64,000 bases of DNA from a virus. The position numbers and the translations under genes are program-made. The notes under the pieces were generated by a model. The model had not been told where the DNA came from. It ran no database searches and saw only the letters and a list, made by a program, of their open reading frames with translations. Numbering within the stretch: the stretch's first letter is position 1; each line of letters starts with the position of its first letter. Positions 5,400-61,804 of this stretch are shown piece after piece. Location of the stretch: positions 1 to 64,000 of the IMG/VR virus record IMGVR_UViG_3300032893_000015; one strand, written 5' to 3'.

Positions 5400-5825
5400 T
5401 TACGTTTCTTCGCCCGCTTGCCGCCTCGCCTCCACGCTACCACGTAGCGGCGCCTCTTCCCTCTGGCGCTCGTTGGGTGGGGGTTGGGGGGCGAGCTCCT
5501 TTTGCATCCTCAGCGTCTCTTCCGACAGGCCCAGGTGCGGCGTGACTCGCACAGCTTCCTTCACCCGTCGTTTCTCTTCTTCGACCGCTTCCCCCATCCG
5601 CTCCATCAGATACTTCGTCGCTTGCTGCCCGATGTCTTTTGCAAACTCGTCGACCTTGTCCTCGGGATTGGAAACCCGGGTTTCCAATCCCCCCCACTCC
5701 AGGTCCGCCGGTGCCGGCTCCGCCATGACACGCATCCCGAGCCGTATGATCCACCCCCCTATCCGTGCGCGCGCCTCCATGACGGCCTCGCGCACGGCCT
5801 CCCTGAGCACTTTTCTGTCGTCCAT
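5400..5825 (-). CDS. hypothetical protein (contains palindrome copy 1 in frame as LETRVSN)
   Basis: ORF from MDDRKVL, tiles between neighbours. Confidence 0.6.
   Translation of the reverse strand: MDDRKVLREAVREAVMEARARIGGWIIRLGMRVMAEPAPADLEWGGLETRVSNPEDKVDEFAKDIGQQATKYLMERMGEAVEEEKRRVKEAVRVTPHLGLSEETLRMQKELAPQPPPNERQREEAPLRGSVEARRQAGEET
5667..5688. repeat. 22-bp perfect palindrome ATTGGAAACCCGGGTTTCCAAT, copy 1
   Basis: exact match; extends to 28 bp with GGG/CCC flanks; inside an ORF. Confidence 0.97.
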
Positions 5826-5851
5826 CGGGGGTAACCCTTTCCCGGGGGGTC

Positions 5852-6619
5852 TCAGTACGCTGCGAAAACGCTCCCCGCCGTCGCCGTCGTTCCCGTTGCC
5901 TTGATCTGCTTGGCTCTGACGGGAATCTTCCCTGCCGTGGCTGGGCAGTTCAGGGTGACGGCATCGCCATCCGCCGTGACGATGGCCATCGTATGGGCGG
6001 TCGTCGTGTCCTGGCACCAGAGCCACCTGCACGGTCCATAAGGCATACTGGTGAGCACCGTATCGCTGAAGGTCACGACCTGCATCCCGTTGGCTTCGTC
6101 GTCGGCGTTGGGCGTCTCGGGCATGCCGATGTCGGGTGCCATCCCGAAGTAGTACGTACCGTTGGGTGGGGTGCTGCTGGCGGGGGGCGGCTGCACGATG
6201 AGCACCAGGTCCAGGCCCCCGGGCATGTAGTGCTCCATGTTCGACTTCACCACGGGCCTCTCCGCGCCCGCCGGCAGGTCGAAGTACGTGATGCGCCCGA
6301 GCCTGAGCGCACGCGAAAGGTCGTGCGTCTTCAGGTACACGCCGACCATCCTGTCGAACACGTACAGCTCCGCCCCCAGGTACGCCGCCGCCCCCGTGGG
6401 CCCGCTGTACCCCACGGCCAGCCTTCGCACCGGGTTGCCCGTGGTGTCGCGCTGTCGAACGGCCATGCCGTTGTCGACGGACCCGCTGACGGCCGTGAGG
6501 ATGCCGTTACCCGTCACATACACGGGCGACACCTGCACGGAGTTCGTGGTCGGCAGCGCGTCGATGGTCCAGGGCGTGTTGGCGGCAACGGCACGTTGGA
6601 AAACGATGGGGAAGTTCAT
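5852..6619 (-). CDS. putative virion structural protein
   Basis: Thr/Gly/Val-rich composition, lies in the morphogenesis region. Confidence 0.5.
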   Translation of the reverse strand: MNFPIVFQRAVAANTPWTIDALPTTNSVQVSPVYVTGNGILTAVSGSVDNGMAVRQRDTTGNPVRRLAVGYSGPTGAAAYLGAELYVFDRMVGVYLKTHDLSRALRLGRITYFDLPAGAERPVVKSNMEHYMPGGLDLVLIVQPPPASSTPPNGTYYFGMAPDIGMPETPNADDEANGMQVVTFSDTVLTSMPYGPCRWLWCQDTTTAHTMAIVTADGDAVTLNCPATAGKIPVRAKQIKATGTTATAGSVFAAY

Positions 6620-7194
6620 CGGGCTTCTGCCATCGTCGCGGCAACCCAGATGATGCGCAAGCCGGGTGCCATCCCGTACATCCCAAAGCCGCAGTGCCCT
6701 TCGCTCTGCGGGCTGACGACGCCGTGCCCCCCGATGGTCCACCCCCCGTGGGCATCCTCCGGGCCGAGGTTACGCACCATCACCGGTGGCGTGAGGTCCG
6801 TATACGCCGCCTTGGTCGGGGTGCGCTGACCGCTGTCCGGCACGAACCGCAACACTCCTTCCGCCTGCTTCCAGCGCGTCTGCGTGACGTCCCTGACCAG
6901 CCTCGCCTTCCAGTACAGCCCTCTGACTTCCGGATTGACGTACACGGTCAGTGGACAGACGAGCTCGGGTACGAGCTTGTCCATGCCCACGCCCGCCCCC
7001 CACGACCGCTTGCTGTACCCTCCCACGCTCGACATGCGGAAAAGGTCCGGGTTCACGGGCATCACACACACACCTCTTTCCGCCAGGCGGTGCGCTCGTT
7101 GCCCGTCCACCAGACTCCCGTCCCAGAACTCCCCCTCCGGGTCCCACACGACCACGTGGTACTTCGCCGGCTGCAAATGAATGGCCAGTGACAT
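6616..7194 (-). CDS. hypothetical protein
   Basis: ATGA overlap with the downstream gene. Confidence 0.6.
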   Translation of the reverse strand: MSLAIHLQPAKYHVVVWDPEGEFWDGSLVDGQRAHRLAERGVCVMPVNPDLFRMSSVGGYSKRSWGAGVGMDKLVPELVCPLTVYVNPEVRGLYWKARLVRDVTQTRWKQAEGVLRFVPDSGQRTPTKAAYTDLTPPVMVRNLGPEDAHGGWTIGGHGVVSPQSEGHCGFGMYGMAPGLRIIWVAATMAEAR

Positions 7195-7230
7195 CGGCTG
7201 CGCCTCCTCGTACGAGACGCAGCCTAGCAC

Positions 7231-7497
7231 TTACCTTTCATCCACCAGGACCCAGCGATCTCCGCGCTCCTTGGCTCTCTTTTCGTAAGGCTCCAATTCC
7301 GCGAAGAAGAACTGCGCCCGTGACCCCGGTCCGCTTCCGATCTGTATGGGAGTTCCGCGCTCGTTGCGCTTGTACACGGGCGCCTGTGGATCGTGCCAGC
7401 ACAGCGCAAACGTGTATCGCCCTCTGGTGTCTGGTCCGTCGTAAACGACGCATATCGTTTCGCCCGGTCTCGGCAACACCTCCTTCGGCGTGCTCAT
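7231..7497 (-). CDS. hypothetical protein
   Basis: start MSTPKEV overlaps the stop of 7494..8027. Confidence 0.55.
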   Translation of the reverse strand: MSTPKEVLPRPGETICVVYDGPDTRGRYTFALCWHDPQAPVYKRNERGTPIQIGSGPGSRAQFFFAELEPYEKRAKERGDRWVLVDER

Positions 7498-8027
7498 GGC
7501 AGCGGGTGCCGTTGCTCCCACTCCACGGCTCTCCTGGCTGCCATGGGCCAACTTGTCCAGGCCCCCGGCCTTCGCTGCACCAGGTCCCACGCGATGCGCA
7601 CCTCGAGCGGCCTGCTCCCGACCAGGTCTTCGCCGCTGAGCGGTCCTTTGTACACTCCCCCCATCGCCTCCGGGTGCAACTGCCACATGCCCCACGCCCG
7701 CCCCCCGTCGCACGGTCTCGCTGCTACGTGGCTACGGTTGCACGTCCCGTCGTCCACGCCCACGTGAAAGCGTGACTCTTCGTAGGCGATGGCCAACAGC
7801 CTCAGTGCCACCCGTTCGTTCTGCTTCGCGTCCCCGGGGCGCTGCTCGGCTTCCGCCCCGATGTCCTCGGCCACCTGTTGGTACCGCTCCCTCGACGCTT
7901 CGATCGTCTCCCCGTGATACCGCTCCCACGTCGCGCAGCTGATTGCGTTTTTCGCCGTTTCGCAGTCCTGCGGCAGGTTCGCCCACGCGGCCATCGCCGC
8001 CACCAAATACACCACCAGCGCTTGCAT
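7494..8027 (-). CDS. lysozyme-like/lytic transglycosylase with N-terminal signal or SAR sequence
   Basis: LLAIAYEESRF catalytic-Glu motif and GRAWGMWQLH; hydrophobic N-terminus. Confidence 0.7.
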   Translation of the reverse strand: MQALVVYLVAAMAAWANLPQDCETAKNAISCATWERYHGETIEASRERYQQVAEDIGAEAEQRPGDAKQNERVALRLLAIAYEESRFHVGVDDGTCNRSHVAARPCDGGRAWGMWQLHPEAMGGVYKGPLSGEDLVGSRPLEVRIAWDLVQRRPGAWTSWPMAARRAVEWEQRHPLP

Positions 8028-8097
8028 TGCTTTGGGCCCTTTCCCTTTGGCTACTCCCCCCTTTGGGGGGACGGCTTCTCTTGCCGTCTTTTCCGGT

Positions 8098-60528: not shown

Positions 60529-60687
60529 GCCACCTTTTTCTGACCCTACCTCCGCTTGCCTACGCGAGCAAAGGCTTTCTCCTCCGCACCGACACTTGCC
60601 ACCCGAGCGTCCGCAGCCGCCTAGCCGTGACGAACACTCCCGGCCACCGCCGATCGAACCGCACGACCTTCCCCGCCCGCACCCCTG

Positions 60688-61092
60688 TCACTTCGTACTC
60701 GTACATGTCTCCTCTCCCTCCCTCTTCTGTTGTTTTGCCAGGCGCGCGGCTCTCCGCGCGCACGTGACGCACGTCGGCGGCCCTTGCACTTCCGTCGCCC
60801 CCAGTCGCTCCTCCTCCACGTTCCCGCAGAGCGTCATTCCGTCCCCCCTACGCACCGCGTGCGTCTGCGGTCGCATCACCCTGTCCGGCTTCTCGTAACT
60901 GGGGAACGCTCCCCTCGCTCCCCGACCGCGGTCCGCCCCGGTCAGCTCCTCTACGATGCGCACGCGATAGTCCCGGTCCTGATGCCACCGATGACCGCAC
61001 CCCGCACACTGGCGAACGACCGTGTTCGTCTTCACCGCCAGCAGTTTGGTCGCCTCCACCGAGCCGCACTCAGGGCATCCTTCCGGTCCCAT
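60688..61092 (-). CDS. Zn-ribbon protein
   Basis: MGPEGCPECGS...CAGCGHRW; second TH...TLCG...TCVTC motif. Confidence 0.65.
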   Translation of the reverse strand: MGPEGCPECGSVEATKLLAVKTNTVVRQCAGCGHRWHQDRDYRVRIVEELTGADRGRGARGAFPSYEKPDRVMRPQTHAVRRGDGMTLCGNVEEERLGATEVQGPPTCVTCARRAARLAKQQKREGEETCTSTK

Positions 61093-61238
61093 CGCTTTCC
61101 CCCCTACGCCGCCGTTGCGACTTTGGAAGCCAACGAGAGCGTTCCCGCCCCCCAGTCCCAGCCTGGGCGCGCCTGGCCGTCAGAAAAGGCGCGCAGGCAT
61201 TTGTGCTGCTTTGCTGAGAGCTTCATCGTCCCTTCTCC

Positions 61239-61640
61239 TCACTTGTCGTCTTGGTCGTCCTGGCACGTCTCGGCAGCTTTCAGGTCCTCGATCACCTCGC
61301 GCAGCTTCCGGCCAGTCGCGGGCTTGAACAGCTGCTTGAAGATCTCGTGCTTGGCGGCGAAGGTAGCCGTGTCGCGGTCCAGCTCCTTGAGGTTGCTCCA
61401 GCCCGTCGGCGGCTCGAAGACCTGACCATGCAACACTGCTTCCGCGTACTGAGCGAATCGCCACGACACCTCCTGGGCGTTGACCACCGTCCTCCCGCGG
61501 AGGTCATCCAGGTCCTGCGCGAGCCGGAACAACATCAGCTGTTGTTCCGTCAGGAACAGCTTCCATTGCTCTTCCGTCACGTCTTTCATGTCTTCGGGCT
61601 TCTCGATCGCTGCCATCACAATGCTGTCGAACTTGACCAT
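61239..61640 (-). CDS. hypothetical protein, first gene after promoter P3
   Basis: MVKFDSIV start with AAGGGCAAGGGGAG leader. Confidence 0.65.
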   Translation of the reverse strand: MVKFDSIVMAAIEKPEDMKDVTEEQWKLFLTEQQLMLFRLAQDLDDLRGRTVVNAQEVSWRFAQYAEAVLHGQVFEPPTGWSNLKELDRDTATFAAKHEIFKQLFKPATGRKLREVIEDLKAAETCQDDQDDK

Positions 61641-61679
61641 CGTCGTCTCCCCTTGCCCTTCGTCCTGCTGACAAGGAAG

Positions 61680-61740
61680 AGTATTATTCCTTTTGCCTAG
61701 GTTGGCAATAGGAAAACGCGTGGTCGGGTACTTTTTTCTC
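61680..61740 (-). promoter_or_regulatory. sigma70-like promoter P3
   Basis: minus strand TTGCCA-acctaggcaaaaggaat(17)-AATACT, upstream GAGAAAAAAG tract. Confidence 0.7.
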
Positions 61741-61782
61741 CGGGGTCCCTTTTCCCCCGCTCTTTTCCGCCGGTTCCTGTCG

Positions 61783-61804
61783 ATTGGAAACCCGGGTTTC
61801 CAAT
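61783..61804. repeat. 22-bp palindrome, copy 12
   Basis: exact match; intergenic, upstream of P3. Confidence 0.97.

Follow-up and report, generated by a model that had tools for sequence, protein, structure and literature searches.

A dispersed, perfect palindrome with a private sequence in each of a group of related phages: candidate docking sites for a dimeric DNA-binding protein

We describe here a perfect 22-bp palindrome, ATTGGAAACCCGGGTTTCCAAT, that is repeated in identical copies throughout the genome of the phage in IMG/VR record IMGVR_UViG_3300032893_000015, called G0 in the following. The stretch that we analyzed (the window) comprises bases 1–64,000 of this 100,610-bp record, which CheckV rates as complete. 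The palindrome is found in 12 exact copies in the window and in 18 in the full record. An initial annotation, made from the letters alone, had reported these 12 copies as free of mismatches, and all of them matched exactly at the same coordinates. It had further placed eight copies between genes, often right behind a stop codon, and four inside coding sequence in two reading frames. This distribution was confirmed (8/12 and 4/12), with most of the intergenic copies situated 0–17 nt past a stop. The genes of G0 lie essentially all on the minus strand, as judged from the codon-position G+C. Read on the coding strand, the copies sit mostly in short gaps; several are located 0–8 nt past a stop and 12–60 nt ahead of the next start, and three overlap the A of a TGA stop.

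Numbered along the window, copy 2 (11880–11901) lies 2 nt past the stop of an N6/N4-methyltransferase-like gene. It is followed 8 nt downstream by a TACGCT hexamer that resembles a −10 element, and then by the ATG of a papain-like peptidase gene. Copy 3 (17963–17984) is found 6 nt past the stop of a weakly ParBc_2-like gene, while copy 4 (22510–22531) lies 8 nt past a stop and 4 nt upstream of the promoter-like sequence GGCATAAGGCT with its leaderless ATG. The first base of copy 5 (27263–27284) is the A of the TGA stop of a 996-aa open reading frame (ORF; 27284–30274, minus strand). This ORF had been called terL; it does carry an intein, but Pfam returns only the Hint domain. Copy 6 (31475–31496) abuts a TGA stop and has the next ATG 12 nt downstream, copy 7 (34587–34608) follows a stop codon by 2 nt, and copy 8 (36317–36338) occupies a larger intergenic gap, about 196 nt past a stop and 17 nt upstream of an ATG. 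Finally, copy 12 (61783–61804) is placed 17 nt past a stop and about 0.5 kb downstream of a pair of genes for Fis-type helix-turn-helix (HTH) proteins, at a junction that is occupied in the relative G2, too.

The four copies within ORFs are read as LETRVS or LETRVSN in one frame and as IGNPGFQ in another. Copy 1 (5667–5688; LETRVSN) lies in a hypothetical minus-strand ORF (about 5400–5830). Copy 9 (48535–48556; LETRVS) falls into the gene of an SbcC-like ATPase, in a loop flanked by the signature motif and Walker B. Copy 10 (50977–50998; IGNPGFQ) is part of the variable N-terminal region of a small ORF between SbcD and SbcC, and copy 11 (56217–56238; LETRVSN) encodes part of the low-complexity linker that connects the PolB core with the C-terminal domain.

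In 12 of the 18 copies the repeat unit is a 24-mer, extended by an outer G and C (G-…-C). The GGAAAC/GTTTCC cores are 10 bp, hence one helical turn, apart. Sites with one to three mismatches were found neither in the window nor in the full record, and half-site words outside the copies occur at chance frequency, with neither excess nor avoidance, so there is no tail of decaying copies. In 100 dinucleotide shuffles of the window the 22-mer gave no match, with a chance expectation of 0. The copies are spaced more regularly than if they had been placed at random, whether over the whole genome or among the gene junctions (coefficient of variation of the gaps 0.49–0.57), with P between 0.0002 and 0.012 in six genomes of the group described below.

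Outside its own record the exact 22-mer has no match in IMG/VR, and it is absent from 185,579 prokaryote genomes (one per species) and from the JGI metagenome contigs. Its degenerate 18-mer core, TGGAAWCCCGGGWTTCCA, gave 39 scattered single matches in the prokaryote genomes against about 35 expected by our own estimate, showing that the word is not a host repeat; a regulon-like set of copies was present in none of the prokaryote genomes searched. The initial annotation had considered that the motif might turn out to be an abundant host element of the REP (repetitive extragenic palindromic) type or an assembly artefact. The chance-level matches argue against the former and the independent assemblies of relatives, which show the same kind of sites, against the latter. 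Rfam holds no family that matches the palindrome, G0 gave no match to the RAYT-type Y1 transposase family PF01797, and a megablast search of 20 kb against the GenBank phages found no match either.

Using PolB and the major capsid protein as queries, we found relatives of G0, all of them uncultured phages of 77–100 kb, with the same one-strand, collinear gene order and a protein identity of 26–78%. At least ten of these relatives possess a private palindrome of their own, in 7–26 copies each. Nine palindrome-bearing genomes were assembled in full, and further sequence versions, which we call dialects, were taken from shorter loci. The words are ATGGAAWCCCGGGWTTCCAT in G1 (G001, IMGVR_UViG_3300030620_000004; 13 copies), CCACCGCACGGCGCCGTGCGGTGG in G2 (26 copies), GATTCGAAAAGCGCTTTTCGAATC in G3 (about 17–20 copies), CCCAAACCCGGGTTTGGG in G4 (26 copies), ACGTAAACCGCGGTTTACGT in G5 (12 copies), CTGAACATCGATGTTCAG in G6 (7 copies), TTGGAAACCCGGGTTTCCAA in G9 (18 copies) and GGGAAACCCGGGTTTCCC in G11 (16 copies). 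The shorter loci furnished GGACCGAAAGTCGACTTTCGGTC (L088), CGAAACTCGAGTTTCG (L096 and L097), GTCGGAAACCCGGGTTTCCGAC (L116), TCTGGCGAAACCCGGGTTTCGCCAGA (L120), TCCTCGGAACGTTCCGAGGA (L119) and TGACGGATCGCGCGATCCGTCA (L094). Every dialect is of even length and dyadic right through its centre, which is always CG. G9 and G0 share the same 20-mer, with major capsid proteins that are 54% identical. The base beside the CCCGGG core of G1 is A or T independently in each arm, and pairing is broken in 4 of the 13 copies. The incomplete contigs G7 and G8 contain no such repeat; the replication module of this phage family is also missing there. Beside its private palindromes, G1 additionally holds a single copy of the 16-bp palindrome GGTTTCACGTGAAACC, which we take to be the canonical chromosomal parS consensus.

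The comparison of orthologous positions shows that the sites stay in place while the word changes. L116 and G9, which are about 78% identical at the nucleotide level, have three orthologous sites, and at each of them one reads TCGG..CCGA and the other TTGG..CCAA; at a fourth such place the G9 sequence is degenerate. In the small ORF between SbcD and SbcC, the G0 copy (IGNPGFQ) aligns with G4's own word (PNPGLG) at the same codons. The PolB linker holds one copy in G0, just past the conserved core, and two copies of its own word (PTARRRAV) in G2. Several gene junctions are occupied again and again across the dialects, for instance the one that precedes the SF2 helicase, those that follow the capsid gene and the terminase-like ORF, and a place within or beside PolB. 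In SbcC the loop with the G0 copy is 4 aa longer than in seven orthologues. The SbcC of G2 has its own copy in the coiled coil with no change in length, and this copy therefore arose by substitution and not by insertion. The comparison with the relatives supports the earlier proposals that selection acts on the DNA rather than on the peptide and that the sites would suit a dimeric protein. Identity within a genome, difference between genomes and conserved position together require a reader that acts in trans and recognizes sequence, and not just a fold.

Two of the genes concerned vary in architecture as well. The small domain between SbcD and SbcC (window 50579–52000) is a separate ORF in G0 and G4; G2 has it as a fusion with SbcD and G1 as one with SbcC. 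The extra C-terminal domain of PolB, about 70 aa after the linker (window 55986–56240, minus strand), has a homologue in G2 and is absent in G1, whose PolB stops at the start of the linker.

Dispersed perfect repeats could also be driven or selfish elements. They might serve as recombination linkers like the promoter-early stem-loops (PeSLs) of T4-type phages, spread by a drive similar to that of uptake sequences, or be targets of a site-specific recombinase, with 8–9-bp arms around a 6-bp core. In being either perfect or absent, regularly spaced, specific to the lineage and sometimes brought into genes by substitution rather than insertion, the copies resemble the DUS/USS uptake sequences; to our knowledge, no mechanism of molecular drive has been described for a phage. 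With 22–24 bp the words are near the minimum length for homologous exchange, G0 encodes RecA-like, SbcCD and PD-(D/E)XK proteins, and PeSLs are known to mediate the shuffling of modules (PMC2839356, PMC4122927). However, the ten genomes are collinear, and we saw among them neither a rearrangement nor a clean presence/absence insertion bounded by copies. A RAYT-type transposase and a tail of decayed copies are missing, and the sites persist at orthologous positions over deep divergence. We consider this explanation improbable. REP/RAYT elements and miniature inverted-repeat transposable elements (MITEs) are similar in that they are short palindromes just past stops with a species-specific sequence. 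They differ from the G0 case, which comes without a RAYT gene, without diverged copies and with a word that is absent from prokaryote genomes. Moreover, the G0 positions are conserved over deep divergence instead of being insertion polymorphisms, and the intragenic copies show no or only partial length change.

In the G0 family two promoter-like motifs are found 6–13 nt before start codons, namely a −10 element of the TAGGCT/TAAGCT type, which has 18 copies on the coding strand and 4 on the non-coding strand, and GCGGCAT[AG]A. Examples are seen at 22480–22510 and 55960–55985 of the window and in the relatives G2, G4, G9 and G11. Their short distance to the start codons indicates that leaderless or near-leaderless genes are widespread in this phage family. 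GCGGCAT[AG]A may be the promoter of a sigma-70-family protein that is encoded at 59842–60504 on the minus strand (Sigma70_r2, 35 bits; PHROG sigma factor) and kept in most relatives. Throughout the family, most sites fill the short space that separates a stop codon from the −10 element of the following, often leaderless, gene. Many palindromes lie 1–21 nt upstream of a promoter-like motif, and hence over the −35 region. Both motifs also occur without palindromes, and the palindromes inside ORFs have no promoter. The idea that the palindrome itself is a −35 element with a fixed spacer to the −10 element was rejected for G0, where the distances are 3–21 nt; for some G9 copies, which precede TAAGCT by 1–2 nt, such a role is plausible.

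The reading that we tentatively favour, with a confidence a little below an even chance, is that a sequence-specific dimeric protein, probably encoded by the phage, recognizes the palindromes on duplex DNA and punctuates the transcription units. We think of duplex DNA because the symmetry runs through the centre, where the loop of a hairpin would be free, because the GGAAAC/GTTTCC cores are one helical turn apart and because G1 tolerates arm mismatches. It is further suggested by the composition of the word, which is 55% A+T in a genome with 36% A+T (64% G+C), by the weak fold of the 24-mer as a hairpin (only −11.6 kcal/mol) and by the lack of a T-tail at any G0 copy. A last argument comes from three G9 copies that lie between divergent leaderless promoters, where no gene ends, and thus outside both flanking transcripts. 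In this model one two-fold symmetric protein, most likely of phage origin, would read the 22–24-bp sites, and its preferred sequence would drift by lineage while the sites stay in place. The bound protein could then act as a global operator or roadblock on the single-strand, operon-like genome and silence or insulate transcription units by occupying the −35 region of downstream promoters and the path of read-through, comparable to KorB at its dispersed OB sites or to the stoperators of Cluster A mycobacteriophages. The sites would accordingly be punctuation of the operator or roadblock type rather than core promoter elements. A few copies are fitted in frame into linkers of long genes that tolerate them.

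Among published systems, the one nearest to this is a 17-bp dyad repeat in the Cluster O mycobacteriophages, TGTTCGG-N3-CCGAACA, which is present in 34 invariant copies and spread throughout genomes of about 70 kb with more than 30 copies each (PMC4351075). About 40% of these copies are intergenic, the rest being located in genes or at gene edges, and the repeat is absent from the host genomes; the authors proposed sites of a dimeric regulator without settling the function (PMC4351075). Both systems have an invariant, dispersed dyad that is found partly in genes and keeps its positions among relatives. The G0 family shows many invariant dyadic copies far above chance, conserved positions and only chance-level matches in the prokaryote genomes. 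The G0 word is longer (22–24 bp) and dyadic through its centre, whereas the Cluster O dyad has a free N3 spacer, and the phages are unrelated, the G0 family being myovirus-like, PolB-encoding and 77–100 kb in size. In addition, dialects at orthologous positions become visible in the deeply diverged relatives of G0, which the five near-identical Cluster O genomes could not show.

For dispersed operators that act at a distance, KorB-OB of the IncP plasmid RK2 offers the best mechanistic analogy: global silencing is brought about there by copies of a single palindromic operator scattered over a mobile genome, some at differing distances from promoters and others remote from them (PMC11790492). 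KorB is, however, a CTPase of the ParB family with a 13-bp OB site, and no qualifying ParB protein co-occurs with the G0-type sites. RK2 carries 12 OB sites. In Cluster A mycobacteriophages, whose genes point largely in one direction, dozens of stoperators occupy the short gaps between genes; these repressor sites stop elongation, and motif and repressor co-evolve from one subcluster to the next. The sites themselves are asymmetric, slightly variable 13–14-mers that are oriented with transcription, and they belong to temperate phages with a known repressor. The G0 sites, in contrast, are perfect palindromes, and we identified neither a repressor nor an integrase in G0. The PeSLs of T4-type phages, lastly, are also repeated in a large myovirus genome and combine a stem-loop with a following promoter between genes (PMC2839356, PMC4122927). 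Their stem-loops, often GGGG…CCCC, are similar but not identical and concentrate in hyperplastic regions; the repeat includes the sigma70 promoter, and PeSLs are demonstrated terminators and recombination points (PMC2839356, PMC4122927). In G0 only the palindrome is repeated, letter-perfect, evenly distributed over core modules and also without a promoter, which is not part of the repeat unit. Cassette indels of the PeSL type were not seen, in a comparison that includes no very close relative of G0.

As for the protein, the initial annotation had brought up Fis-like HTH proteins as possible binders. The best candidate, though a weak one, is indeed the pair of Fis/NtrC-type HTH proteins encoded next to the primase, namely a 90-aa Fis/NtrC-type protein (62304–62576, minus strand) and its 76-aa paralogue (62606–62836, minus strand). 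The latter passes the Pfam threshold for HTH_8 of the Fis family with 22.4 bits against a cut-off of 22. The profile of this family matches the DNA-binding domains of RacA, NtrC and Fis among the solved structures, and an iterative search placed its members, usually paired, right behind the primase gene in G013 and in each of the nine palindrome-bearing genomes that were examined in full. Their absence from G7 and G8 is uninformative, as these contigs lack the whole replication module. A covariation between recognition helix and dialect was not demonstrable among 13 sequences. For the other conserved proteins of the replication module without assigned function, PHROGs, Pfam and the ESM Atlas were uninformative.

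A number of observations weigh against docking sites on duplex DNA and, in part, against this candidate. The HTH family was not detected in G010, which carries nine palindrome copies; the recognition helices differ between G0 and G9 despite the common 20-mer; and no protein of G0 is unusually similar to its G9 counterpart, none exceeding the 54% of the capsid. The distance from the palindrome to the −10 element varies (3–21 nt in G0) and several copies have no promoter nearby, so that simple promoter control cannot be the whole story. The remaining points are those that an RNA hairpin would explain. Of 130 intergenic copies, 56 lie within 10 nt of the upstream stop codon (0–10 nt past it) and ahead of the next promoter. 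A subset of the copies in G1 and G2 has site-specific extra complementary flanks, which extend the arms to up to 20–21 bp, and two G2 copies are followed by TTTTT, as in real hairpin terminators. On the coding strand of G0, the flank of the 18 copies is G-rich upstream (positions −1 to −4, 12–16 of 18; background G 0.36) and only partly mirrored downstream, a strand-specific feature that a symmetric DNA site does not predict.

According to this alternative, the copies act as hairpins in RNA (or in single-stranded DNA), be it as terminators or attenuators or as signals for 3′-end stabilization or processing at the ends of transcription units. They would resemble the stem-loop of T4-type PeSLs or REP elements and might be read by a sequence-specific RNA-binding factor. 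Stem-loops with GGGG…CCCC are proven terminators in PeSLs (PMC2839356). In addition, a consensus terminator scan over 20 kb did not pick up the copies and found no canonical terminators beyond chance, and something else must hence end the transcripts. An RNA hairpin needs neither identical copies nor a dyad that crosses the loop, yet all dialects show both. None of the G0 copies has the stable G+C-rich hairpin plus U-tract of an intrinsic (rho-independent) terminator; the fold is weak and A+T-rich in a G+C-rich genome, and Rfam gave no match. Mismatches in the arms are tolerated in G1, the three G9 copies between divergent promoters are upstream of both start points, and copies within ORFs such as PolB and SbcC would cleave or terminate essential messages. 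We consider this alternative unlikely; some copies may double as transcript-end hairpins, by analogy with the T4-type PeSL cassettes.

The failure of any shared phage protein to stand out between G0 and G9, which have the same 20-mer at only 54% capsid identity, would also fit a binder that belongs to the host, with dialects that track the host range. The close relatives L116 and G9 differ in dialect, and a bacterial metagenome-assembled genome (MAG) holds the G1-type word twice, beside a related DnaB gene. The word, however, occurs at chance frequency in the 185,579 prokaryote genomes and forms no regulon-like set there, and we regard a host binder as distinctly improbable. The MAG in question, of an uncultured delta proteobacterium (L071, CAWELQ010000007.1, 9.4 Mb), contains exactly two copies of ATGGAAACCCGGGTTTCCAT, at 3764–3781 and 6759–6776, thus 3 kb apart and each about 30 nt upstream of a gene start. 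One of the genes flanked by a copy encodes a DnaB-like helicase, whose N-terminal domain is 36% identical to that of the G0 DnaB. We rejected a prophage of the G0 family at this place, as only the DnaB is related and a capsid homologue is missing; the locus, perhaps what is left of a related element, could help to trace the host, for which deltaproteobacterial/Myxococcota or Acidobacteriota MAGs are the present lead.

The initial annotation had favoured parS-like loading sites for three ParB-like proteins, which could perhaps recruit the TET dioxygenase and the glycosyltransferase. The CCCGGG core recalls the Noc site, and ahead of the TET and glycosyltransferase genes, both supported by Pfam, stand two genes with weak similarity to ParB_N (16.9 and 18.5 bits, cut-off 26.3). 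Dispersed palindromes that are bound by ParB-family proteins do exist, as in KorB-OB (PMC11790492). The third ParB-like gene reaches 19.4 bits for ParBc_2 against a cut-off of 23.6 and occurs in no more than 5 of 10 relatives; a search of the ParB-like proteins of G0 for an HTH domain detected none. Homologues of the ParB-like and TET genes are present in G2, G3 and G11 and of the ParB-like gene alone in G1 and G8. G4, G5, G6 and G9, with 26, 12, 7 and 18 palindromes, respectively, lack them, and G9 even shares the 20-mer of G0. Neither a qualifying ParB-family protein nor the co-occurrence of protein and site across relatives, as known for ParB-parS, KorB-OB and Noc-NBS, was therefore found, and we give parS-like sites hardly any credence. 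The genes in question are part of a nucleotide-pool and DNA-modification set (window 33660–34211, 40874–41614, 41988–42680 and 44282–47457) for a dCTP deaminase-like and a dATP/dGTP diphosphohydrolase-like protein, ThyX, the TET/JBP dioxygenase, the glycosyltransferase and the two ParB_N-like proteins. The pairing of ParB-like and TET genes recurs in G2, G3 and G11.

A wider interpretation of the duplex-DNA sites, which we consider quite unlikely, is that the palindromes are the visible half of a hitherto undescribed system that covers the phage chromosome. The phage would keep a private address word at set positions some 3–6 kb apart, essential genes included, and would replace it throughout the genome each time its reader changes. 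Such a reader, either a novel type of protein or the Fis-type pair in the role of a phage nucleoid protein, would serve to label or coat the DNA of its phage and not to regulate individual promoters. Possible purposes are the silencing or timing of the whole genome, protection from nucleases or rival phages, and the organization of replication or packaging.

Invariant palindromes dispersed over the genome are on record for a small number of cultured phages, for example those of Cluster O, where they have been given neither a function nor a binder. What the G0 family adds is that many dialects occupy orthologous positions, that in-frame copies of different dialects fall on the same codons and that the spacing is even. 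Across at least ten deeply diverged genomes, the in-frame copies included, the places and the dyad symmetry are kept, with a sequence that is private to each. Different words at the same positions are a natural experiment, through which the purpose of such words becomes directly testable. Should the sites be global operators or coverage sites, they would represent a general, overlooked layer of phage genome organization and a useful signature for the grouping of uncultured phages.

Some further features of the G0 genome deserve mention. Two arrays with a 37-nt period are located at 1–700 of the window (minus strand) and at 99.0–99.85 kb of the genome, with about 6 and at least 16 units. They have the form GAGTGGACG-9 nt-GAACGAAG-11 nt and had been described as TIGR-Tas-like. 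The initial annotation had seen no array spacer that matches the palindrome; by eye, none is similar to it. At 2343–5351 (minus strand) the window encodes a 1002-aa intein protein with Intein_splicing and LAGLIDADG_3 domains, which we presume, as a guess, to be the portal. Outside the window, an 883-aa protein (L006:16279–18927, minus strand; genome 96276–98927) has a Mu F-like head-morphogenesis domain and, at its C terminus, an NAD:arginine ADP-ribosyltransferase domain.

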